A stretch of DNA of 64,000 nt from a phage (GCA_018509705.1 GCA_018509705.1_3630.1), one strand, 5' to 3'; counted from the stretch's first letter, positions 692 to 44,022 are shown. Program-made: numbers and translations. Notes: generated by a model not told the origin, from the sequence alone.

Positions 692-1246
692 TTACTCCCC
701 GCTGTCAATAGCAAAACTCATTGCAATACGGTATGCCTCTTCTAATGGTAAGAGTCTCCCCCACACATCCCAACCGACATCAAACTGTCTGCCAAACAAC
801 TGTTGTGTGGTTCCGTGAGCATGACCGAACAGTTGGACTGATCCGTGAGGCTTTCTGTTCCACTTTGCAAACTGGTAATGGCTCATACAGATCAAATTCT
901 TGTTGTGGCGAAGCTCGTAATAATCTACAACCTCATGACCGAACTCTTTCATAATTCTGACAGTCGTCCTTGTGTCATGGTTACCACGAACAAGAATAAT
1001 ATGTCCGTTCAACATATTTAGAACATCTGGGAGCAATTTGTTGATATTCTTATCATTAGTGCACGCAATATCTCCCAAGTGAAACACAGTGTCTGCAGGT
1101 GACACAACAGAGTTCCACTTGGTGATGATTCCCGCATTCATACTGTCAAGATTGTGATCATACTGAGATCTGTGTTTTTGACATGAGTCGAACTCCATGA
1201 CCCGCTGGTGGAGAAAGTGTGTGTCGCTTGTTACAAAGTATTTCAT
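692..1246 (-). CDS. Calcineurin-like metallophosphoesterase (Ser/Thr phosphatase-like)
   Basis: Motifs VTSDTHFLH, HLGDIA and VRGNHD match the metallophosphatase signature; start moved to internal Met (MKYF) to remove overlap with upstream gene. Confidence 0.75.
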   Translation of the reverse strand: MKYFVTSDTHFLHQRVMEFDSCQKHRSQYDHNLDSMNAGIITKWNSVVSPADTVFHLGDIACTNDKNINKLLPDVLNMLNGHIILVRGNHDTRTTVRIMKEFGHEVVDYYELRHNKNLICMSHYQFAKWNRKPHGSVQLFGHAHGTTQQLFGRQFDVGWDVWGRLLPLEEAYRIAMSFAIDSGE

Positions 1247-1253
1247 ACATTCC

Positions 1254-1721
1254 TCATTTAAGTTTAATGCAGTTTTTAAGCTGGCGTTCCATACGATCCA
1301 CAACCCTGTCTGGAACATCATGAATGCTTTTATTACCATGGCGGTTTTCAACCACGATCACGGTATAACTATACCCATGACTGATCGCCATGTCAATATA
1401 TTCTTGCACATATTTTTCTTTTGTAAACGTATTACTTACCACGATACGGTCGTATCCCATACGCATCATATCTTCTACGTTATCTTTGCACCATTTTGCT
1501 GCAAGTGTTACTTTACTTGCATCCCAGTTGTAATTTCCATCATCGTCGTACCAGAACATGTCGTTCTCAAAATGTGGATACAGACCTTCTAAAGATAGCG
1601 CATTTGCCAGTGTTGATTTGCCAGACCCTGGTAGACCACGCACGATATATAGCATTTTAGACATAGTAATCCTCCGTTTTAATTTCAACGATAGTATACC
1701 CAACTGTTTTGTTAATTTCAA
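1254..1721 (-). CDS. P-loop NTPase, polynucleotide-kinase-like
   Basis: Walker A GLPGSGKST near N-terminus; about 150 aa; immediately upstream of the phosphatase on same strand; start may be internal Met (MSKMLYIV). Confidence 0.6.
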   Translation of the reverse strand: MKLTKQLGILSLKLKRRITMSKMLYIVRGLPGSGKSTLANALSLEGLYPHFENDMFWYDDDGNYNWDASKVTLAAKWCKDNVEDMMRMGYDRIVVSNTFTKEKYVQEYIDMAISHGYSYTVIVVENRHGNKSIHDVPDRVVDRMERQLKNCIKLK

Positions 1722-1724
1722 GTG

Positions 1725-1758
1725 TTGACACTAGGTTATTTGTGTGGCAGGATAGACT
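1725..1758 (+). promoter_or_regulatory. Candidate sigma70-type promoter (TTGACA at 1725-1730, weak -10)
   Basis: Exact -35 hexamer upstream of first + strand gene; -10 is poor. Confidence 0.35.
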
Positions 1759-1785
1759 GACAAAATGACAAATGAGGAATGTATA

Positions 1786-2700
1786 ATGAAGTATTTTAAT
1801 GCAGACGACCTAGTTGACAAAGGTCTTGTAACCAGCAGATATTACCCAGATCTTGGGTTAAAGATCTATAAATATGCCAGAAAAGTATTCTACAACAACT
1901 TATGGCATTTGTCTCCTCGATTACTGGAGTGCCGAGGCATTGTTGTCGGTAATGAAGGAAATGTTGTGGCATGGCCCTTCACAAAAGTGTTTAACTTGGG
2001 AGAAAACTCCACCAACCTGCCTGACAATAAGCTTGTGACGGCGGTAGAGAAAAAGAACGGATTCCTTGGTGTGGTGTCATCTCATAAAGGTGAACTATTG
2101 TTCTCAACAACCGGGTCTCTTGATTCTCCATATTGTAACCTTGCAAAGGAAACCATCCAGGAGCAATGCAGTAATTTAGATCTTATCAAGAAGGTTATGG
2201 GCAATGAAAACATGACATTCATGTTTGAAATTTGTCACCCTTCAGATCCGCATATTGTTCAGGAAGATCATGGTGCATATTTGATAGGTTGCAGATATAA
2301 TGATTCTGGAATAATGCTACCAGAAGCAGCTTTAGATGGGATTGCCAAATACCTTGGTGCAAAACGTCCTCACACTGTGCGTGAAATTCCGTTCAGTTAT
2401 GCAAAAGAATTGGCTGCAGAAACAAGAGGTGAAGGGTATATGATTCGTAAGCCTTACTACCCTTATGATCTGCAGCTGAAGATTAAGTCTCCATACTATC
2501 TGGCACGGAAGGCCGTAATGAGGGGTAAAGCTTGGAAGATTTGGGATGATGATATCTTTAAACGTGTTGACGAAGAGTTTTACGGCATGGTAAACTTCAT
2601 TCGTAACAACTACACAGAGGATGTATGGAACTGCCTCCTGGAGCAGGAACGCCGTGAGATACTTGATTACTATTTCCACAACGAGAACTATATGCAATGA
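1786..2700 (+). CDS. Nucleotidyltransferase-superfamily polynucleotide ligase, probably RNA ligase
   Basis: Motif I-like EKKNGF (KxNG), motif IV EGYMIRK, motif V LKIKSP; start set at second ATG (1786) preceded by GAGGA. Confidence 0.5.
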   Translation: MKYFNADDLVDKGLVTSRYYPDLGLKIYKYARKVFYNNLWHLSPRLLECRGIVVGNEGNVVAWPFTKVFNLGENSTNLPDNKLVTAVEKKNGFLGVVSSHKGELLFSTTGSLDSPYCNLAKETIQEQCSNLDLIKKVMGNENMTFMFEICHPSDPHIVQEDHGAYLIGCRYNDSGIMLPEAALDGIAKYLGAKRPHTVREIPFSYAKELAAETRGEGYMIRKPYYPYDLQLKIKSPYYLARKAVMRGKAWKIWDDDIFKRVDEEFYGMVNFIRNNYTEDVWNCLLEQERREILDYYFHNENYMQ

Positions 2701-3047
2701 AGAAGTTGATTGTGTGGCTAGATGACTTGAGAGATCCGTCAAATTATGGGCTCCCAGACGCTATTTGGCTAAAGAATTCCTCCGAGTTTATGGATTTTAT
2801 TAACGATAATAAAAAGCTCTACAGACGCGTTTCTGAGTGGCATATGGACAACGACCTTGGAGAGGTATTCGAAGGGTACGATTGCCTATCCATGTTGGAG
2901 GAAAAGTTTGTATTTGGTAAGCCTCCTGTAGTTGACAACGTGAAGATTTTCGTGCATACTTCTAACCCATCAGCGGCTCGTAAATTCATGCTTGCGACTG
3001 ACTCGTTTAAAAAGTTTGGAATAGAGATTAAACAAAACATCTACTGA
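2697..3047 (+). CDS. Hypothetical protein
   Basis: 116-aa ORF overlapping upstream stop (ATGA coupling); no motif recognised. Confidence 0.45.
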   Translation: MKKLIVWLDDLRDPSNYGLPDAIWLKNSSEFMDFINDNKKLYRRVSEWHMDNDLGEVFEGYDCLSMLEEKFVFGKPPVVDNVKIFVHTSNPSAARKFMLATDSFKKFGIEIKQNIY

Positions 3048-3055
3048 GGACACTT

Positions 3056-3817
3056 ATGCGACGACTGATTGTTATCTCCGGTGCTGGTTTGAGTGCTGAA
3101 TCTGGTATTCCCACTTTCCGATCTGGTAGCACTGCAATGTGGGAGAATTTCAGCATCGATGAGGTGTGCAACATCCACACCTTTGCCAAGAACTACTATA
3201 AGGTGCATGACTTTTACAATGCACGTCGTGTAGCTTTAGGCAGTGTTGAGCCTAACCTTGCACATCTTCGGATCGCTGAGTGGTATTCCCGCTGGTCTGG
3301 TCGTGTGATCAACCTTACCACCAATGTAGATGATTTGCTGGAGCGTGCTGGTGTAAAACATGAAGATATTTTACATGTCCACGGGTATTTGCCAGAAATA
3401 GTCTATGAGGACGATGAAGGAAGTGACGTCATTAAGGACATTGGATACTCTGAGGTAGACGCAGGAAAGTATACCTGGGTTAAGCCTAATGTGGTGTTCT
3501 TCGGAGAAGTAGCTCCGAAGTATACAGACATGTATGACCTGTTGACTTCTCTTACGAGCAATGATATGGTTATCCTTGTAGGGTGCTCCAACACAGTTAT
3601 CAATTTTAACTGGGAGCTATTCCCTGCCTGCAATAAGGGAACCAAACTACTGATCGTTAATAAATACGACTCACAGCATCTAGAGGAGAATGGCATTTCA
3701 CGTAGTGATATTTACCAGTATGAGGATCGCGGCATCCCAGTTTGGTTTAACGGTGCGGTTGATGCCTTCTCTGATAAAACATTCATTGAGACTGTAGAAA
3801 ACTTTATGGAACTTTAA
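3056..3817 (+). CDS. Sir2-family (sirtuin-like) protein lacking the zinc-ribbon cysteines
   Basis: GAGLSAESGIPTFRSG (GAGxSxxSGIPxFR), TTNVDDLLERAG (TQNID-like), HVHG catalytic His, VVFFGE; no CxxC pairs. Confidence 0.75.
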   Translation: MRRLIVISGAGLSAESGIPTFRSGSTAMWENFSIDEVCNIHTFAKNYYKVHDFYNARRVALGSVEPNLAHLRIAEWYSRWSGRVINLTTNVDDLLERAGVKHEDILHVHGYLPEIVYEDDEGSDVIKDIGYSEVDAGKYTWVKPNVVFFGEVAPKYTDMYDLLTSLTSNDMVILVGCSNTVINFNWELFPACNKGTKLLIVNKYDSQHLEENGISRSDIYQYEDRGIPVWFNGAVDAFSDKTFIETVENFMEL

Positions 3818-3830
3818 AAGGAGACCTTTA

Positions 3831-4544
3831 ATGCTGAATACTAAATTAATTGACAACCTGGAAAAACTATCCCAACCTGAAAACTACCTTTGGTCTGCCA
3901 ACTGGGTGGAAAACTGGAACCGTGTGGCAGCTAAAGTGAAAAAATCATACACACCATTCGAATTACAGCTTAGCTTCATTGAGGAAGAGTTCAATGAAGT
4001 TTTGGAAGAGCTGGAGAAAGGTGATGGTGGAGATCACCTGCTAAAAGAGGCCTGCGATCTTCACGTTGTCACAAGTTATGCAGCTTATCTTGTTAATGAC
4101 AATCACGAAAAGTGGTCAAACCTGTTTGATAATCCACGAGGTCTTAAGTTCAAGATCGGTGAGTTCTATGACACACTGATCGCTGCGAAAAACACATCCA
4201 AGCAAAGAGCGTCAGCTTACCGTTTAGCGGAGTTGTCAACAGCTTTGCTGTTCCAGCTTCGCGGCGATGTGTGCGGGATGATGCGTAAGGTTCTCAAATC
4301 GAATGACAGCAAGTTTGCACGGGTCAACCATCTACGGTATTCACACGGTGCCAGTGCAGATATGCCTGCTGAACAACTCATCGAGTTGGAGATTAAAGAT
4401 CTTGAGCGACGCTTTGATGGTCGATATGAAGGTTTTGTTGCTAAGGAAGAATTCTACAACGGTAATAAAGTTATCATATTCCTCGACAGTAAAGGTAAGA
4501 TTATGAAGCCTTCAAGCTTCAAGGATGTAACAGAATATATTTAA
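3831..4544 (+). CDS. MazG-like nucleotide pyrophosphohydrolase (putative)
   Basis: Acidic EEEFNEVLEELEK...EACDLHVV segment resembles the MazG EExxE...D motif. Confidence 0.45.
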   Translation: MLNTKLIDNLEKLSQPENYLWSANWVENWNRVAAKVKKSYTPFELQLSFIEEEFNEVLEELEKGDGGDHLLKEACDLHVVTSYAAYLVNDNHEKWSNLFDNPRGLKFKIGEFYDTLIAAKNTSKQRASAYRLAELSTALLFQLRGDVCGMMRKVLKSNDSKFARVNHLRYSHGASADMPAEQLIELEIKDLERRFDGRYEGFVAKEEFYNGNKVIIFLDSKGKIMKPSSFKDVTEYI

Positions 4545-4550
4545 TAATAT

Positions 4551-4578
4551 AGCCGGGGCGATCCCGGCTTTACTTGTT
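4551..4578 (+). terminator. Rho-independent terminator
   Basis: Hairpin AGCCGGGGCGATCCCGGCT followed by T-rich tract, just after the MazG-like gene. Confidence 0.55.
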
Positions 4579-4608
4579 TCGGAAAGTATGCAAGTGAGGT
4601 AGAAAGTT

Positions 4609-4917
4609 ATGTACAAGCACTCCAGAGATCTTGAAAACGATGCTGTGTTTGGGGATCAGATGAAAGAATTGGTTAAACTTATAGGTAGGATAGAGGATAA
4701 GTTTGACACTAAGATCTACATCGACAGCAAAGTATTCAACCACAAAATATGGACAAATCTGTGTGTTGGACTACATGGAGATAAAGATGTGGTAAATTTA
4801 GTTGTAATTAAGTTCATAGTGTGGCAGAATAAAACTATAAATTATTACGATCCACACCTGCTTGTTTACCCGATAAAAGACCTATTAGAGAAGGAGGACT
4901 GCAATGCCGTTATTTAA
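4609..4917 (+). CDS. Hypothetical protein
   Basis: 102-aa ORF in co-oriented array; no motif recognised. Confidence 0.4.
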   Translation: MYKHSRDLENDAVFGDQMKELVKLIGRIEDKFDTKIYIDSKVFNHKIWTNLCVGLHGDKDVVNLVVIKFIVWQNKTINYYDPHLLVYPIKDLLEKEDCNAVI

Positions 4918-5173
4918 TCTTGCTAAACCTGTAGAAGCACACCAGTTTGACGGAAGCTCTTCATCAGTATCTGATCTGCAACGGTGGATTGATACAGGTG
5001 TGTTTACATCGTCACCTGTTCGGACCAGAGATCTTCGTCGTATGTGTGAGCTTGTAGAGCCGTTTGGTAACCTAGTCTTGTACCAGGGTGATTGGCTTGT
5101 TGATTTTATGGGTGACTGGTTGGTAATGAGTAAAGAAGAGATGTTTAAAATTTTTAAGGAAGAGGTAGAGTAA
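4904..5173 (+). CDS. Hypothetical protein
   Basis: 89-aa ORF; stop overlaps ligase start. Confidence 0.4.
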   Translation: MPLFNLAKPVEAHQFDGSSSSVSDLQRWIDTGVFTSSPVRTRDLRRMCELVEPFGNLVLYQGDWLVDFMGDWLVMSKEEMFKIFKEEVE

Positions 5174-6438
5174 TGCATCAATTCAAAACAACACTTTATG
5201 CTCGCAATAAAGACGGGTCCATCCAGATGTGGAAAGTAGATACAAGCGGCAACGAGGTTATTGTTGTGTTCGGCAGGGTTGGTGGCGCTGTACAATCAAA
5301 AACCACAAAATGTGAAGCCAAAAACATCGGGCGATCCAACGAAACTACAGCAGAAGAACAAGCTGTTTTAGAGGCGCAGTCTAAATGGGAAAAGCAAGTC
5401 CGGCTGGGTTACAAAGAAAATGTCGAAGACCTTGAGGCCATTGACATTTCACCTATGCTGGCGCAAGATGCTTCGAAAAAACCACACGCTATTGTGTATC
5501 CATGCCACCTGCAACACAAACTTGACGGGAACCGTTGCTTTGTCAAATTCGTAGACGGTGTACCTAAATTCATCTCTCGCGGTAACAAAGTGTATGAGCC
5601 GAAAGGTAACATCCTCCGTGAGCTACAAGACCTGCATGAAGAAACAGGCTTTGATGAATTTGATGGGGAGTTCTACATTCACGGTTTACCGTTGCAGAAA
5701 ATAACCTCCCTCGTTAAGAAATGGCGTAGTCTGGAAGACATTGAGAAAGAAATTGATAAGGATTTCATGGCAGACATAAAACGCCGTGAGAAAGCGATCA
5801 AGGCCGGAGAGGAGACATGGAAAGACTTCAACAAGGTTGATCATCCGGTTTATGAAGAACCTGTCCGTGATTCTGATCGGTATGGAGGTTACTGCTCTTA
5901 TGACCTGAAACTGATGGTGTTCGATGTTCCTGATTGCATCCATCGCTGGGAAGATCGGGCCACAAATCTTCAGGAAGTTATTGATTATTGTGAAGTTAAC
6001 CATCTCACAAACGTCGAGGGTGTTCCTTTCAAGATCGCCTACAACGAGGAAGAGGTTCGCAACTCCATCGGACAGTACATGCAGGAAGGTTATGAAGGAT
6101 CTATTATTCGTAACTTCTGTGGCACCTACGAATACGGTCAACGCTCTACTGATCTGCTCAAGTGGAAACTGTTCACCGATGTTGAAGCAAAAGTGATCGG
6201 TGTTGAAAAAGATAAAAACGGGGAAGGTGTTCTTATCTGCGAAGAGAAAGATGGGACACAATGCAAATGCAAAATGAAAGGCACTTTTGCCGTAAGGAAC
6301 TACGAAAAATGCTGCTCATATGTTGGCAAATTTATCACGATAAAATTCCAACAGCGTACGGTGGACGGTGTGCCTCAATTCCCTGTGGGTATCGCATTCC
6401 GCAATCTTAATCCAGAAACTTGGGAGGTGCTGGAATAA
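5173..6438 (+). CDS. ATP-dependent DNA ligase
   Basis: Motif I HKLDGNR (KxDGxR), FDGEFYIHG, EGSIIRN, LKWK. Confidence 0.75.
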   Translation: MHQFKTTLYARNKDGSIQMWKVDTSGNEVIVVFGRVGGAVQSKTTKCEAKNIGRSNETTAEEQAVLEAQSKWEKQVRLGYKENVEDLEAIDISPMLAQDASKKPHAIVYPCHLQHKLDGNRCFVKFVDGVPKFISRGNKVYEPKGNILRELQDLHEETGFDEFDGEFYIHGLPLQKITSLVKKWRSLEDIEKEIDKDFMADIKRREKAIKAGEETWKDFNKVDHPVYEEPVRDSDRYGGYCSYDLKLMVFDVPDCIHRWEDRATNLQEVIDYCEVNHLTNVEGVPFKIAYNEEEVRNSIGQYMQEGYEGSIIRNFCGTYEYGQRSTDLLKWKLFTDVEAKVIGVEKDKNGEGVLICEEKDGTQCKCKMKGTFAVRNYEKCCSYVGKFITIKFQQRTVDGVPQFPVGIAFRNLNPETWEVLE

Positions 6439-6561
6439 TGTAGGAAGGTCTAGTAGGTAACGGTAACCAATTGAATGATGGTTTTCAATTGGCACCTACA
6501 TAACCACACTATGCAGTGTTGTTGATCGGGTTAGTTATGAGTAAACTGGAGAGTATGAAAA

Positions 6562-7050
6562 ATGAAACTTGATAAAAATGTTCAACGAAAAGCTTTCTTG
6601 GATATGATCGCATATTCGGAAGGAACAGATAATGGTAGACAACCTACCAAGGATCGGGGGTACGATGTCATAGTCGGCGGCAAGCTGTTCAGCGATTACA
6701 GCAAGCATCCCGGTGTTTACGTTAAGCTAAATGCTAAACTTACCTCCTCCGCTGCTGGGCGTTACCAGGTTTTGGAGAAGTTTGCTAAACACTACATGAA
6801 ACAGTTAGGATTACCAGATTTTGGCCCTGCCAGTCAGGACAAGATTGCGTTGCAACTGATCCGTGAGTGCAAGGCTCTCGCCGACATTGATGAAGGGCGT
6901 ATTCATCAGGCCATTTATAAATGCCGCAGCCGCTGGGCAAGCTTCCCACCACCGCCAGGGGCTGGAAAGCTGTACAATCAGCGAGCAGAAAGTATAGACA
7001 AGATGCTGGAGATCTTTAAGAGGGCAGGTGGAGTTGTTACAGATGAGTAA
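6562..7050 (+). CDS. Endolysin, lambda R-type lytic transglycosylase
   Basis: Near-colinear similarity to phage lambda R as recalled (QRKAFLDM..SEGTDNGRQ..GYDVIVGG..AGRYQ). Confidence 0.9.
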   Translation: MKLDKNVQRKAFLDMIAYSEGTDNGRQPTKDRGYDVIVGGKLFSDYSKHPGVYVKLNAKLTSSAAGRYQVLEKFAKHYMKQLGLPDFGPASQDKIALQLIRECKALADIDEGRIHQAIYKCRSRWASFPPPPGAGKLYNQRAESIDKMLEIFKRAGGVVTDE

Positions 7051-7723
7051 CGGGATTGACTGGTGGAGTGTCTTTAGATACGATACAGGCACTGGAAGGT
7101 TGTTTTGGAAGTCCCCACCAAAAAACAAACCTCAACTAATGGGAAAGGAGGCTGGATGTACTAACAACGGGTACAGGGATATAGTCTATCGTGGCGTGCA
7201 TTACTACAGGCATAGATTGGTGTGGGAGATGCATTATGGACCAATCCCAGAAGGGTACGAAGTTGATCACATAAAGCCACTTTTCTATTCCGACGGTGTT
7301 GCGGATGATAGGGTAGAAAACCTACAACTGTTAACACCAGAAGAAAATGCAAAAAAGGCGGCAGATGACGGATGCCTGGCACGCAAGATACCTAAATCCA
7401 ATACTGGACATTTGGGTGTATATTTTCATGCTAGATCTGGAAGGTATGCTGCTTTTGGTAAGGTAGGTCATTACTATAAGAAAGACCTAGGAGAATACGA
7501 TACCTTAGAAGAGGCCATTGCTGCTCAAAAGTCTTTTGAAAGTGGCACGTTTGTCAGGGAATATCGTGGACAGCCTTTAGGGAGGGATAAATCTAGAGGT
7601 GTCAGATTTGAAGCAGATAGGGGCAAATGGAAAGTAACTTTCAGAGGAAAAACGCTAGGCAGGTTTGACACCAAAGAGTCTGCTGAAGCGTGTTACGCAA
7701 AGGCTCTTACTGAAAGCTTGTAA
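7043..7723 (+). CDS. HNH homing endonuclease with AP2-like DNA-binding domain
   Basis: HRLVWEMHYGPIPEGYEVDHIKP...NLQLLTPEEN (HNH) plus TGHLGVYFHARSGRYAAFG (AP2-like); start at in-frame ATG 7043. Confidence 0.7.
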   Translation: MSNGIDWWSVFRYDTGTGRLFWKSPPKNKPQLMGKEAGCTNNGYRDIVYRGVHYYRHRLVWEMHYGPIPEGYEVDHIKPLFYSDGVADDRVENLQLLTPEENAKKAADDGCLARKIPKSNTGHLGVYFHARSGRYAAFGKVGHYYKKDLGEYDTLEEAIAAQKSFESGTFVREYRGQPLGRDKSRGVRFEADRGKWKVTFRGKTLGRFDTKESAEACYAKALTESL

Positions 7724-39980: not shown

Positions 39981-40003
39981 ACTATCTATGAAGGAGATTT
40001 GAG

Positions 40004-40330
40004 ATGGGTATACCGATTACTGTAAAAGAGCTAAATGAACGTGATGCAGGTGGTCTATGGCCTGCACGAAAAATCCGCTGCGTCTATATGAAAGAGAATC
40101 TTGAACATCTTGATCAACAGATAAAGGTCGGCGATATTTTCGAGGTCTTCTATTCCAATCGGCGCAACTGGGAAACCATTCAGCCTTCTGGTTTTGTTCT
40201 TGCCAAACTTGACACTGGAGAAGTGATTATCCCTGGGTTGGATATTGTCTTCGAAATTATCCAGGAGTGGGATCCGGATAAGATTAGATACGAAGAATTA
40301 TTCGGTAAAGGTATTATCAAACCTGTGTGA
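40004..40330 (+). CDS. Hypothetical protein
   Basis: 108-aa ORF with GAAGGAGA RBS. Confidence 0.45.
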   Translation: MGIPITVKELNERDAGGLWPARKIRCVYMKENLEHLDQQIKVGDIFEVFYSNRRNWETIQPSGFVLAKLDTGEVIIPGLDIVFEIIQEWDPDKIRYEELFGKGIIKPV

Positions 40331-40338
40331 GGTGGATT

Positions 40339-40638
40339 ATGTCTACAAAGGCGGCTAAATACTCCTATATGCCATCAACCTCTGCAGAGGTAGACTTTAG
40401 TTTCGATGTGTTTCCACTGTTTGAGGTGGTTCTGGCATACCCAACAATACTATCTACTCCTGAATCACTTGTGCCTGTTAAGTTGCAGAACGCTATGCAT
40501 TCTATGCACTACAACAATAAATGTAGGCACAGATGGTGTCAGGACGAGGAGAGAGATTTGGATAGTTTGAGAGATTTTGACAGTCACCTTTTGACACCTT
40601 TCAGCTACTCCAACCTTGATAAGCCTTCATGGGTATAG
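40339..40638 (+). CDS. Hypothetical protein
   Basis: Start reset to ATG 40339 with GAGGTGG RBS. Confidence 0.4.
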   Translation: MSTKAAKYSYMPSTSAEVDFSFDVFPLFEVVLAYPTILSTPESLVPVKLQNAMHSMHYNNKCRHRWCQDEERDLDSLRDFDSHLLTPFSYSNLDKPSWV

Positions 40639-40663
40639 CAAAATATCAAATTTAAGACACCTA

Positions 40664-40690
40664 GGACGCTCTGTGGCGTCCTTTTCTTTA
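40664..40690 (+). terminator. Rho-independent terminator
   Basis: AGGACGCTCTGTGGCGTCCT hairpin plus T-tract. Confidence 0.6.
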
Positions 40691-40851
40691 TATGGTGCAC
40701 GATTGCATACCTTGGACAAATAATCTCGTTACAGAGCGTTTAAGGACGGTCTACAAACAAATCTCTCTTTCGAGCGTAGCGAGAACGCACGTCCGTTTTG
40801 ACCCAAATCACCATACGCTCGGATTTTAACCAAACCCTCGCGGCGTTTCTG

Positions 40852-40880
40852 TTGACACATTACCGCTCCAGTGATAGTAT
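40852..40880 (+). promoter_or_regulatory. Sigma70-type promoter (TTGACA-17-TAGTAT)
   Basis: Read directly. Confidence 0.55.
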
Positions 40881-40912
40881 CCACACATAGTTTGTAGAAT
40901 ATGGAGTACACA

Positions 40913-41002
40913 ATGAGAACATTGTCCGAAGTTTTAGTGGTGATCCTGATGATTATTACGTCCATAGCGGCTGTTGCCGGAATACTCACGGGTGGAACAT
41001 GA
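40913..41002 (+). CDS. Small hydrophobic peptide (29 aa)
   Basis: Hand-translated MRTLSEVLVVILMIITSIAAVAGILTGGT; GGAG RBS; ATGA overlap with next ORF. Confidence 0.4.
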   Translation: MRTLSEVLVVILMIITSIAAVAGILTGGT

Positions 41003-41211
41003 TCAACACACATGCATCTGAAGAGACATCCGAAGGAGTGACCATATGTCCCTTGGCTGATCCAGTGAAAGAGGAAAACTTCGATTCTGAAGATTCTCCA
41101 TCTTCGCTCCAGGTAGATCCTGAGGCTGATGATCTAACGTGGGAAGACATCGTAGACATCTGGTTCTCTATTATGCCTGAGCACGAAGAGTTCAGGGGTG
41201 GTAGACTATGA
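40999..41211 (+). CDS. Small highly acidic protein
   Basis: 70 aa rich in D/E. Confidence 0.4.
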   Translation: MINTHASEETSEGVTICPLADPVKEENFDSEDSPSSLQVDPEADDLTWEDIVDIWFSIMPEHEEFRGGRL

Positions 41212-41332
41212 AGCACCGAGCCCACACAGGTTCCTCATGCTAAAGCATGGCCTGAAGAGGCAAACGTGCATAATTCCAGTGCATTGGAACGTATAAAACC
41301 CAGTTCACACTCTCATTTCCAGAGGAGATTTC

Positions 41333-41548
41333 ATGAAGATAGAAATATTTGGTGGAGCTGACAACACTCGTGGCCTGATTTACCTTGAGTTCGATGAATC
41401 ATACCTGCCAGAGGTGTTAAATATGGACTCTGTTGCTGATGCTTTGGGAGTAAGTCCTAAAGATCTCTACTCTGGTGCTGAGATTGATGGTTGGGAGGAG
41501 ACCATGAACATTGATTTCAGTGAAGTAGGTGATGAACCACTGGACTGA
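41333..41548 (+). CDS. Small acidic protein (family A-like start MKIEIF)
   Basis: 71 aa; AGAGGAGA RBS. Confidence 0.45.
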   Translation: MKIEIFGGADNTRGLIYLEFDESYLPEVLNMDSVADALGVSPKDLYSGAEIDGWEETMNIDFSEVGDEPLD

Positions 41549-43034
41549 CACACAATTAGCTACCCGGCTAAAGTGCTGGGAGCACCTATAACACATCTTT
41601 CAACTAAATTTCCCACCACCACAATCACTTACCTCCCACACATGACTGTTTGCTTGTTTAGTGAGCAGTCATGCCTTGACATTCTTGCCTATCCTGATAA
41701 AATTAAGTTCTTCTCTTTTCTTTTACCGAGTAATTCGGGTTTTCTGTTCTCTTCGGTTTGAAGGGGGTATGGAGATACACCTGAGTGAACAGGGTGAACA
41801 ACCGAACCATTGGCTATGGCATTAGCATGGCGAAGCGGACGGGTGACGAAAGAGGGGCCGGAGGACACCAGTCACTGCCATATGATATATGGGTGATAAC
41901 CTGAAGAATCTGAATAAGTGTTTAAGTACCAGTCAGAGGAAAAGGTGAATGGTAGCTGAAGGGGAGGGGGGTTTCTTGTATCTTTAATTTGTATATTATG
42001 TATACACTTGTAAACCAATTTCATCTGAATCTGTTTACCACACAAAGTGGATAGAGACAAATATTACCTATTAAACTTGAATTATTTATAGAAAATACCA
42101 CAACACCACTTAAGTCTTTGATTTTACACACAAATCCTGCAGATATTCAACCTCCATATTTAACATACTTGTAACATATTCCATACTCTACCTGCCTGAT
42201 CAATTTCCCCAACTACATCCCCCATATTTTCCCTGTCTGTACTACCCCTGCCCCGCCGGGAGTCCCGTCATATCTGGCTTTCCAGCAAATATCACACCCA
42301 CAAATATCATTGCCTGAAGAGGGTTTCATCCCATAATACCTGCCTTGCCTGAAGAGGGTTTCATACGCCACGTAAATTTTTTAATTGACCCCTCCCCGCC
42401 GCCGGAAAGGTTGGCTTTTCTCGCACAGACCTGAAGAGTCAGCCAGAAATATCTGAATAGGCCCAATTCTACCCCGATTTTGACCTGACCTACAGGAGCG
42501 CTGCCCTGTCAGGAGCCGTAGCGACTGGAGTGCTGCCAGGCGGACGAAATGGGAATACTTCTCATTCTTATAACAATTCTCAAATATCGAGGCAGTGAGG
42601 CAAATTAATAGGCCAGGCCGTTCACACAGTGGCACAACATTTGCAACCTATCCTGTGGGGATGAATGAGAATACCTATCATTGTGAGAACCATTATCATT
42701 ACGGGCAATTTAACATAATACCCATTATGCGCACCACTGGCGATACATACAGGGATTGATAACATGGGTTACTGTTTACGCACATAACAATTATATTTCT
42801 TACCATTTGTGTGGGATATAGTTAGCAGCCGATAGATTAGATATTAACCTGCAGACTTCTGACCGTCCAGACGTCTAAACGCCCACACACCAAGGATTAT
42901 ACATACACTCCTGAATGTAAACAGGGCCGCAAAAATGCTACCATACAAGCTTGTAAATTTTTCATGCAGCACTTGACAAAGAGGAGAAAAACTTGTCTGA
43001 CATAATGTGACCTAACTGACACAACATGACACTT

Positions 43035-43121
43035 TTACACACCTATTAGTTTACACACTGGATTGTTTACATTCCTGATTGTTCACATGCTAACCATTTA
43101 CATGATTGACTGTTTACACAC
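43035..43121. repeat. Six phased iteron-like repeats of TTTACA/TGTTTACA at about 16-bp spacing
   Basis: Copies begin near 43035, 43050, 43066, 43082, 43099, 43112. Confidence 0.6.
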
Positions 43122-43130
43122 CGATAATCA

Positions 43131-43394
43131 GCCATGCCATTCGTTTGCATGACAATAATTATACATGACAATAATCGCACTGATTATAATTAGCATGACA
43201 TAATATAAAAGCAGGGCAACTATTAGCAGATCTATAGTTGCCTTGCTTGTCATGTCATGATTAACTAAATACAAGGCAACTATGATCTGATTAATAGTTT
43301 GCAGACAAACTATCACGGGGGTGATGGTTACTGCTTTTATATTATGTCGCGACTCCGTCGCGCCATGCCATTCGTTTGCATAGTTGCCTTATTG
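43131..43394. repeat. Composite dyad region: 20-bp direct repeat GCCATGCCATTCGTTTGCAT (43131-43150, 43362-43381) framing an 18-bp inverted repeat and multiple GCAACTAT sites
   Basis: Inverted arms GACATAATATAAAAGCAG (43197-43214) and CTGCTTTTATATTATGTC (43331-43348); GCAACTAT in both orientations. Confidence 0.7.
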
Positions 43395-43991
43395 TTACAG
43401 ATAAAATAATTGTATTGTTAATTATTTCTTATCTTTCTATTAGTCATCTAATGATTTCAGTTAATATAGTAACGTACAGTAAACATTAGACGACTAAAGA
43501 TTTCTCTGCTTATGGTAACCTAACGTGACAATTCCAGACTGTTTACGAAAAATGTTGACACCTGGGCCGATTTATGTTATGCAGTTTACACGAATAATTA
43601 TTTTATGCAGGTATTGACTATTCCGTTATTCTATGGTTGGAATAAATGCTTAGCAGGCTATAGAATGGCGAGCGTACGTAAATTCTGAGATCTGGCGGCT
43701 ATAGTTATACTCGATTTTTCACGTAGAAAACGCTTTTGTAGTTATGTAAGTGTATGACTTATAAAGATTTTTAGTTGTTGACAAGCTATTGAAGATATGC
43801 ATCAGGTTAAATTTTGTGCAAATGCTGCATTATGTGCAATTTTGGAAGGAAAAACGTGTAAAAATGGCCCTGCTACCACACAATGAAAAATTATGCAATA
43901 GTTATTTTATATGTATGTTTGTACAGTGGGGTTAATTGCTGGCTTGTTGATTATTCCATTTGCCAGGCGGGGCCATTTGTGGTAGGAAAAG

Positions 43992-44022
43992 AGGAGACAA
44001 AAAGAAAGGGGCTTTAAGCCCC
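43992..44022 (-). terminator. Rho-independent terminator for the leftward gene block
   Basis: GGGGCTTTAAGCCCC hairpin followed on the - strand by TTTCTTTTT. Confidence 0.55.

Follow-up and report, generated by a model that had tools for sequence, protein, structure and literature searches.

The 64,000-nucleotide (nt) stretch of phage DNA analyzed here (GCA_018509705.1; hereafter, the window) carries near its left end a cassette of six genes built around a gene for a Sir2-family protein, or sirtuin (Table 1). Judged by sequence, the source phage is an rV5-like Vequintavirus: region 1700-4700 of the window shares 96 to 98% nucleotide identity with Shigella phage CM1, rV5_ev147, slur16, and the BASEL phage RudolfGeigy. 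GenBank relatives already label the central gene as Sir2-like or as a sirtuin-domain deacetylase dependent on nicotinamide adenine dinucleotide (NAD). The main yield of our analysis is evidence against reading this protein as an NAD-degrading enzyme (NADase) of the type found in bacterial defense systems, together with alignments indicating that the loss of its zinc site is secondary and recurrent.

Table 1. Features of the sirtuin cassette, with positions counted from the first letter of the window
Feature	Positions	Strand	Evidence
Calcineurin-like metallophosphoesterase, candidate RNA 3'-end healing phosphoesterase	692..1246	-	Pfam Metallophos/Metallophos_2, phrog_547
Polynucleotide-kinase-type P-loop kinase (AAA_33)	1254..1664	-	Pfam AAA_33, PHROGs
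Divergent intergenic region between kinase and RNA ligase genes	1665..1782	.	Promoter-like hexamers on both strands
T4 Rnl1-type ATP-dependent RNA ligase, 305 amino acids (aa)	1783..2700	+	Pfam RNA_lig_T4_1, phrog_562
Stand-alone cREC protein (cyclic-phosphate-processing receiver-like domain, predicted phosphoesterase), 116 aa	2697..3047	+	PF20274
Sir2-family protein, CobB-like (class III-like) sirtuin without zinc-ligand cysteines, 253 aa	3056..3817	+	Pfam SIR2
All-alpha nucleoside triphosphate (NTP) pyrophosphatase, MazG/HisE/dimeric-dUTPase superfamily, with C-terminal beta-hairpin extension	3831..4544	+	
Intrinsic-terminator-like hairpin at the end of the four-gene operon	4551..4569	+	Stem-loop and T-rich tract

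Four of the genes follow one another on the plus strand in the order RNA ligase, cREC, Sir2, and MazG-like, and the cassette reaches farther left than the preliminary description had placed it, to a divergent kinase and metallophosphoesterase pair on the minus strand (692-1664). The start codon of the cREC gene overlaps the stop codon of the RNA ligase gene (ATGA), and gaps of 8 and 13 nt precede the Sir2 and MazG-like genes, respectively, each with a Shine-Dalgarno-like GAGGA or AAGGAG. Beginning 7 nt past the last stop codon of the operon is a G+C-rich hairpin, whose 8-base-pair stem contains 6 G-C pairs and is followed by TTTACTTGTTT (-14.9 kcal/mol, z -2.4); the record of phage Gotham annotates the same terminator. 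The tight packing and the terminator bear out the preliminary proposal of a single terminated operon, as do profile matches its inclusion of an RNA ligase (by Pfam and PHROGs) and a MazG-like NTP pyrophosphatase (at the superfamily level); the 116-aa protein that had been listed as unknown proves to be a cREC protein. In the intergenic region between the kinase and ligase genes, TTGACA occurs on the plus strand (1725-1730) and TTGAAA-17-TATACT on the minus strand (1721-1693), and there is a PhagePromoter prediction at the equivalent site of phage Gotham. Because a sigma-70 scan of the region yields promoter-like matches at the level of shuffled sequence (21, versus 16.8 ± 3.8) and detects no convincing -10 box for the operon, we do not claim a promoter for it.

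The open reading frame (ORF) of the Sir2 gene contains the sirtuin motifs that had been recognized at the outset, namely, GAGLSAESGIPTFR (residue 9), TTNVDDL (residue 88), HVHG (residue 107, with catalytic H109), and VVFFGE (residue 146). It also matches the Pfam SIR2 family (PF02146) over its full length (profile positions 1 to 178 of 180; E value of 3e-27; 96.2 bits versus a cut-off of 24), and SIR2 is the sole Pfam family found at E <= 0.1. Residues G9, A10, G11, S16, G17, F21, R22, N90, D92, H109, and E151 are invariant in 44 homologues; the sirtuin NAD-binding site is complete, and the catalytic His, Asn, and Asp are present. Sirtuins carry a CxxC...CxxC zinc site between the HG motif and the FGE loop. 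Here, as the preliminary description had observed, the four zinc cysteines are absent: the only cysteines of the protein are C38, C177, and C192, with none in residues 111 to 143. The accompanying term "zinc-ribbon-less" fits the missing ligands only, since an AlphaFold model built from the 44 homologues (predicted local distance difference test score [pLDDT], 89.4; predicted template modeling score [pTM], 0.88) places a three-stranded sheet at residues 110 to 146 (pLDDT, 94 to 96) in the position of the zinc module. The model thus indicates that the zinc ligands were lost and the beta-module was kept.

In both sequence and structure, the protein belongs to the CobB/SIRT5-like branch of sirtuins as a derived member. 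Its closest solved relatives by sequence are Escherichia coli CobB (1.7e-21), SIRT5, and Archaeoglobus Sir2-Af, with which it has in common the GAGxSxxSG, FR, (Q/T)N(I/V)D, HG, and FGE motifs and the FYxxRR pair. The Tyr-x-x-Arg pair reads FYNARR at residue 53, as in CobB (SIRT5 has FYHYRR), and both Y54 and R57 are invariant in the 44 homologues; SIRT5 uses this pair to bind acidic acyl groups (succinyl, malonyl) by their carboxylate. The phage protein differs from CobB, SIRT5, and Sir2-Af1 in having no zinc-ligand cysteines, GCS in place of GTS, a phage-specific "IGY" signature, and an invariant C38; identity to these three is 25 to 28%, and whereas they are encoded by stand-alone cellular genes, the phage sirtuin occurs in an RNA-repair context. 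NCBIfam models of CobB-type deacylases match with E values up to 7.7e-36, although all seven stay below their cut-offs (the best, 123.3 bits versus 243), and because every match falls so far under the curated threshold, the protein is not an equivalog of these enzymes.

The sirtuin fold is borne out by the AlphaFold model, whose top 50 Foldseek matches in the PDB are exclusively deacylase-type sirtuins, with CobB first (E value of 3e-18). In a structural ranking (score, followed by percentage), Sir2-Af1 stands at 22.5 (27%), PfSir2A at 19.7 (21%), and SIRT4, SIRT2, SIRT1, and Hst2 at about 18 (22 to 24%). Below them come SirTM (14.9; 14%), SIRT6 (14.8; 17%), and PsSIR2 (13.8; 15%), and then Nezha HerA-Sir2 (12.5; 13%), ThsA (11.9; 16%), and Avs5 (9.7 to 9.9; 15%). 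The model is therefore not structurally nearer to defense Sir2 proteins than to deacylase sirtuins, and the comparison of deacetylases with ThsA/DSR-type NADases that the preliminary description had put forward comes out on the side of the deacylases. The protein is also nearer to deacylases than to SirTM.

This kinship raises the question of whether the protein is a true NAD-dependent lysine deacylase like CobB or SIRT5, an enzyme that would probably favor acidic acyl groups (for example, succinyl or malonyl) and that the phage would use to reprogram host proteins or regulate its own, perhaps including the neighboring repair enzymes. The E values of the NCBIfam deacylase models speak for such an enzyme, as do the invariance of the catalytic His and of the class III Tyr-x-x-Arg pair. 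Against it are the shortfall of all NCBIfam matches relative to their cut-offs (123 versus 243 bits) and the loss of the zinc cysteines across the rV5/T5/Mydo subclade; the peptide cleft of canonical sirtuins has the zinc module as one of its walls. Moreover, the repeated presence of RNA end-processing neighbors in three phage lineages is not something that a general protein deacylase requires. We regard a deacylase as rather unlikely.

The absence of zinc cysteines had originally been taken as the architecture of NAD-degrading defense Sir2 domains, a view that does not survive comparison with a broader set of relatives. All 44 close phage homologues are without cysteine in the zinc segment, and the cysteines are lost across the rV5/T5/Mydo subclade. 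Yet two jumbo-phage relatives (L059 and L061; 41 to 42% identity) that share the clade signature "IGY…KPNVVFF" retain CxxC…CxxC (in L059, CxxxxC…CxxC). When we searched 1.84 billion representatives exhaustively with a profile and classified the best 150 matches by the cysteines in this segment, 44 had none and 74 had four, and the two kinds were interleaved by score. The length of the segment is broadly alike in most of these 150 representatives, and YxxR is kept in 109 of the 151 sequences of the classified set. Since zero- and four-cysteine forms interleave within one CobB-like clade, zinc loss is not diagnostic of NADase-type Sir2 proteins; the alignments present it as a secondary, recurrent trait inside that clade.

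An NADase of the defense type would allow the phage to lower NAD+ or to destroy NAD-derived signals, as a means of counter-defense or host takeover. The missing zinc cysteines agree with this, as does the fact that the neighboring DNA ligase of the phage is ATP-dependent (PF01068), so that phage DNA ligation would be independent of NAD+. Defense Sir2 NADases (ThsA, DSR1/2, SIR2-HerA/Nezha, SIR2-STAND Avs5, and SIR2-APAZ) have the same superfamily fold and likewise no canonical Cys4 site. The remaining evidence is contrary: zinc loss is no guide, given the cysteine counts above and the intact site of jumbo-phage orthologues; no PADLOC defense Sir2 model matches meaningfully (there is a negligible partial match to PDC-S65, with 13.8 bits and an E value of 0.0064); and the neighbors are RNA-repair enzymes. 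The protein is a single domain of 253 aa, with no defense-typical sensor or partner (SLOG, HerA, STAND, pAgo/APAZ, or the DSR C-terminal domain) either fused or adjacent. We consider this explanation highly improbable. A counter-defense role in the broad sense, by way of repairing RNA cut by host nucleases, is plausible.

The proteins encoded around the sirtuin are, for the most part, recognizable as RNA end-processing enzymes. The RNA ligase (ATG at 1783 preceded by a GAGGA Shine-Dalgarno sequence; the mechanically called ORF begins at 1765) matches PF09511 (RNA_lig_T4_1; 3.3e-15) and phrog_562 (1.2e-66); K90-x-N92-G93 is invariant in its alignment, and a family profile searched against the PDB finds "RNA ligase 1" (9do4_B; 3.9e-9) and nothing else credible. 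The kinase, annotated with 136 aa in relatives (the mechanical ORF extends to 1721), matches Pfam AAA_33 (4.7e-10), Zeta_toxin (1.6e-5), phrog_2071 (7.8e-59), and phrog_505, a polynucleotide kinase family (4.9e-10); the RudolfGeigy record calls it "polynucleotide kinase," and the Gotham record calls it "3'-phosphatase, 5'-polynucleotide kinase." The phosphoesterase matches Pfam Metallophos and Metallophos_2 (4e-6 to 5e-6) and the phosphoesterase family phrog_547 (5.6e-52). The mechanical ORF of this gene extends to 1351, the start giving 184 aa is the one annotated in RudolfGeigy and Gotham, and 13 of 61 loci have the gene close to that for Sir2.

The cREC protein matches PF20274 (1.7e-14; 54.7 bits versus a cut-off of 27) and phrog_1479 (2.7e-35), and its receiver-type residues D9, D10, D51, D53, T88, S89, and K96 are invariant in 8 homologues. 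The cREC concept derives from a 2021 jumbo-phage paper of the Aravind group (PMC7824862), and these proteins are called experimentally uncharacterized in PMC9503650. The MazG-like protein has an all-alpha fold and an acidic metal-binding motif (EExxE ... D) whose acidic residues are invariant. Its own PRA-PH match lies below the Pfam gathering score (13.7 bits versus a cut-off of 21.3), and many of its relatives carry a precomputed PF01503 match. "MazG-like" is right at the superfamily level, and the dimeric-dUTPase branch is structurally the nearest.

Relatives of the sirtuin are widespread, occurring in 982 of 50,697 GenBank phage records, T5 among them, whose 2004-era record (AY543070) already annotates the Sir2 gene. 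Together with the publication of the neighborhood in 2022 (PMC9503650), these numbers contradict the preliminary statement that this is not a standard phage function. A search of IMG/VR returned 60 loci encoding Sir2 relatives, 14 of which, in phages of 135 to 150 kilobases (kb), keep the kinase, phosphoesterase, ligase, and MazG-like genes and usually cREC. In Mydo-like loci (55 to 57% Sir2 identity), the genes lie on one strand in the order phosphoesterase, ligase, cREC, kinase, Sir2, and DNA ligase, with the MazG-like gene farther on. The persistence of the gene set through rearrangement points to selection for linkage.

About 45 loci, most of them T5-like as judged by size and gene content, are without the window's Sir2 neighbors, and tblastn searches with those neighbors found none beside the Sir2 gene in T5-like loci. 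De novo clustering combined with Pfam disclosed a non-homologous phosphatase there: a protein matching HAD_SAK_2 ("HAD domain in Swiss Army Knife RNA repair proteins"; 1.8e-20) is encoded in 28 of about 33 T5-like loci, some 200 nt downstream of the Sir2 gene and on the same strand. Within the T5.100 to T5.107 region of T5 (positions 4340-7481 of locus L063), one annotated promoter-to-terminator unit holds both T5.102, the Sir2-like gene, and T5.105, and T5.105 (168 aa; still a "conserved hypothetical protein") corresponds by position and length to the HAD_SAK_2-matching cluster. The third configuration comes from a 607-kb jumbo-phage contig, on which 1.2 kb separates an orthologue that retains the zinc site from a PF09511 RNA ligase gene (2.7e-28); the orthologue also adjoins a P-loop kinase-like gene. 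The sirtuin is thus linked to RNA end-processing three times independently, by partly non-homologous genes, in three phage lineages.

Phi92-like loci (L040, positions 5302-5790; also L051 and L054) contain an unannotated 162-aa ORF (phrog_652, 2.8e-33; Pfam and the PDB give no match) between the kinase and Sir2 genes, in the position of cREC, for which it may be a non-homologous replacement. Sequence motifs had suggested a NADAR domain, which is unsupported by Pfam (even at E <= 5), by PHROGs (where all matches are to families of unknown function), and by sequence searches of the PDB.

Much of this arrangement has been described computationally before, and the gene itself is widely annotated. 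Section 3.7.3 of Iyer, Burroughs, Anantharaman, and Aravind (2022; Viruses 14:1977; PMC9503650) presents the same neighborhood and names phage V5, giving Escherichia phage V5 and Proteus phage Mydo as the prototypes of its configuration 2. The components listed for that type (a sirtuin, a T4-like RNA ligase, cREC, a nucleotide kinase, a pyrophosphatase from the MazG superfamily, and, optionally, a calcineurin-like phosphoesterase) are all present within 692-4544, and we find no substantive difference between the two systems. The same paper describes two further configurations, a T5-like (SP15) one with the HAD protein and one from jumbo phages with 2H, Nudix-cREC, and PIN proteins. It proposes for the sirtuin a KptA/Tpt1-like action, the removal of 2'-phosphates from RNA that has been cleaved, in an NAD-dependent repair reaction, while the associated enzymes open the cyclic phosphate or process ADP-ribose cyclic phosphate. 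What we add is the structural ranking against defense Sir2 proteins, the indication that the zinc site was lost secondarily and recurrently, and the placement of the pyrophosphatase nearest to dimeric dUTPases. (A 2026 "NARP3" paper that names a "phage Sir2" concerns an anti-phage Sir2-HerA system and has no bearing on the phage sirtuin.)

Applied to the window, the repair scheme would run as follows. Metal-independent nucleases of the host would leave RNA, most plausibly transfer RNA (tRNA), with 2',3'-cyclic phosphate and 5'-OH ends; the kinase would phosphorylate the 5' end, cREC or the metallophosphoesterase would resolve the cyclic phosphate, and the Rnl1-type ligase would seal the break. 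The sirtuin would use NAD+ to move ADP-ribose onto an RNA phosphate (a 2'-phosphate, after opening of the cyclic phosphate), and its conserved Tyr/Arg anion pocket could hold this phosphate in place of a carboxylate. A role for cREC may lie in opening the cyclic phosphate of the RNA end, that of the sirtuin by-product, or both, and the MazG/dUTPase-like enzyme would cleave the pyrophosphate of ADP-ribose-derived waste. In the jumbo-phage versions, a Nudix enzyme takes the place of the pyrophosphatase (PMC9503650).

The domain identities, the tight and terminated operon, the intact NAD-binding and catalytic residues, and a neighborhood kept despite rearrangement all favor this scheme. We lean, if only slightly, toward an involvement of the cassette in RNA repair in some form; that it is an RNA-repair cassette whose sirtuin acts on RNA ends or on their by-products strikes us as a close call that falls just short of our assent. 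Tpt1-like chemistry in particular, one subset of this RNA-end reading, is less certain and, in our view, somewhat unlikely. The proposed analogy consists in the gene of an NAD+-consuming enzyme being accompanied by those of an RNA ligase, a kinase, and a predicted esterase of cyclic phosphates, and the genomic association typical of Tpt1/KptA is indeed found, with the ligase and cREC in the sirtuin operon and again in Mydo-like and jumbo-phage loci. Tpt1, however, has the ADP-ribosyltransferase fold, whereas the phage protein is a Rossmann-fold sirtuin without homology to it (none is found in Pfam at E <= 0.1), and the phage ligase resembles Rnl1 rather than Trl1. With SIR2 as the sole Pfam family, any relation to Tpt1/KptA can only be one of functional analogy.

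Several observations weigh against having the sirtuin act on RNA. The cassette is already a complete T4-style heal-and-seal set (kinase, phosphoesterase, and Rnl1-type ligase), for which no removal of a 2'-phosphate is needed, and the ligase profile matches the T4-type "RNA ligase 1," not the 2'-phosphate-dependent Trl1 type. The strongest homology of the sirtuin is to protein deacylases, and, to our knowledge, no sirtuin acts on RNA. Nor is the coupling of sirtuin and ligase obligatory: GenBank contains 982 Sir2 records and 667 ligase records with different host spectra. T5-like phages have the Sir2 gene without this ligase, the Salmonella records number 287 for Sir2 versus 14 for the ligase, and Pseudomonas, which accounts for 175 ligase records, is not among the top Sir2 groups; the PAK_P1-like phages of Pseudomonas have the ligase and do not occur among the Sir2 matches. 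Only in rV5-like phages does the MazG-like gene adjoin the Sir2 gene; Mydo-like phages have it at a distance of about 3 kb, and T5-like loci lack it. Finally, our literature searches on phage sirtuins, cREC, and T5 Sir2-like proteins returned genome reports and two analyses by the Aravind group only, with no biochemical or genetic test.

Comparison with established repair systems locates what is peculiar to the cassette. As in T4 Pnkp plus Rnl1 and in bacterial Pnkp/Hen1, a 5'-kinase, a 3'-end phosphoesterase, and an ATP-dependent RNA ligase are encoded together, and the calcineurin-type phosphoesterase resembles the bacterial Pnkp type. The phage enzymes differ in being separate small proteins rather than a fused Pnkp and in having no Hen1 methyltransferase; conversely, the trio of cREC, sirtuin, and pyrophosphatase is absent from both of those systems.

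A further way for an intact NAD site to serve within an RNA-repair neighborhood would be for the sirtuin to be an ADP-ribosyltransferase that modifies a macromolecule, either tagging or capping repaired or cleaved RNA ends against re-cleavage or else ADP-ribosylating a host protein, with cREC and the pyrophosphatase then trimming or recycling the adduct. The capping logic is analogous to Hen1 methylation in bacterial Pnkp/Hen1 repair. The relative L061 also fits such an activity, being encoded among genes for ADP-ribose and nucleotide processing (DUF4326 and a nucleoside 2-deoxyribosyltransferase-like protein). We nevertheless judge it improbable: a macrodomain partner, the hallmark of SirTM systems (PMC9503650), is neither fused nor adjacent to the protein, which is moreover closer to deacylases than to SirTM. 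We also know of no precedent for RNA ADP-ribosylation by a sirtuin. The L061 locus (5284-7198 of a 279-kb viral contig) has its zinc-retaining Sir2 relative between the DUF4326 gene (1e-23) and the nucleoside 2-deoxyribosyltransferase-like gene (1.2e-33), a context centered on NAD and nucleotides and without an RNA ligase.

In its most ambitious form, the RNA-repair proposal would make this the first sirtuin with a nucleic acid substrate. Convergent with Tpt1/KptA, it would be either a phosphotransferase that depends on NAD and acts on the 2'- (or terminal) phosphate of RNA or an ADP-ribosyltransferase of RNA ends. Its anion pocket would be reused for an RNA phosphate, cREC and the dUTPase-like enzyme would clear the ADP-ribose cyclic-phosphate waste, and rV5-, T5-, and Mydo-like phages would, through this accessory branch of tRNA repair, survive anticodon nucleases of the host; we offer this as a speculative, somewhat unlikely outcome. 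If the published prediction is true, sirtuin chemistry extends from protein lysines to RNA phosphates, and phage tRNA repair gains an NAD-dependent branch, which bears on escape from tRNA-cleaving defenses. Because the gene is so common (T5 and BASEL phages are among its carriers), the phage sirtuin is easy to test both genetically and biochemically.

Beyond the cassette, we note several minor features. There are no tRNA genes inside the window; in phage RudolfGeigy, six (Pro, Ile, Thr, Lys, Tyr, and Arg; positions 422-1234 of locus L001) lie 3.4 to 4.7 kb beyond the phosphoesterase gene, past the position of the window's left edge. Several of these isoacceptors, namely, Lys, Tyr, and Arg, are known targets of anticodon nucleases. 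To the right of the terminator, two small overlapping ORFs (4609-4917 and 4904-5173; phrog_7684 and phrog_14585) also accompany the cassette at Mydo- and phi92-like loci (31 to 47% identity). They are followed by the ATP-dependent DNA ligase gene (5173-6438; PF01068, with an OB domain and a weak N-terminal WGR match, E value of 0.049), which occurs alongside the Sir2 gene at 15 of 61 loci and, in the Mydo- and phi92-like phages, immediately downstream of it. At its 3' end, the endolysin gene (6562-7050) is overlapped by an ORF (7028-7723) whose counterpart in relatives is called a "putative homing endonuclease," and phage RudolfGeigy has a second putative homing endonuclease farther downstream.

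Three GenBank records (MG065655, MG065652, and MG065635; "Campylobacter phage C2/C11/C12," host Campylobacter jejuni) are 97 to 99.6% identical to region 1700-4700. Their host label seems doubtful, with contamination or misassignment as possible causes. Farther along the window (about 40000-44000), the GC skew flips from positive to negative near 42 kb, which is consistent with a switch of the predominant coding strand.

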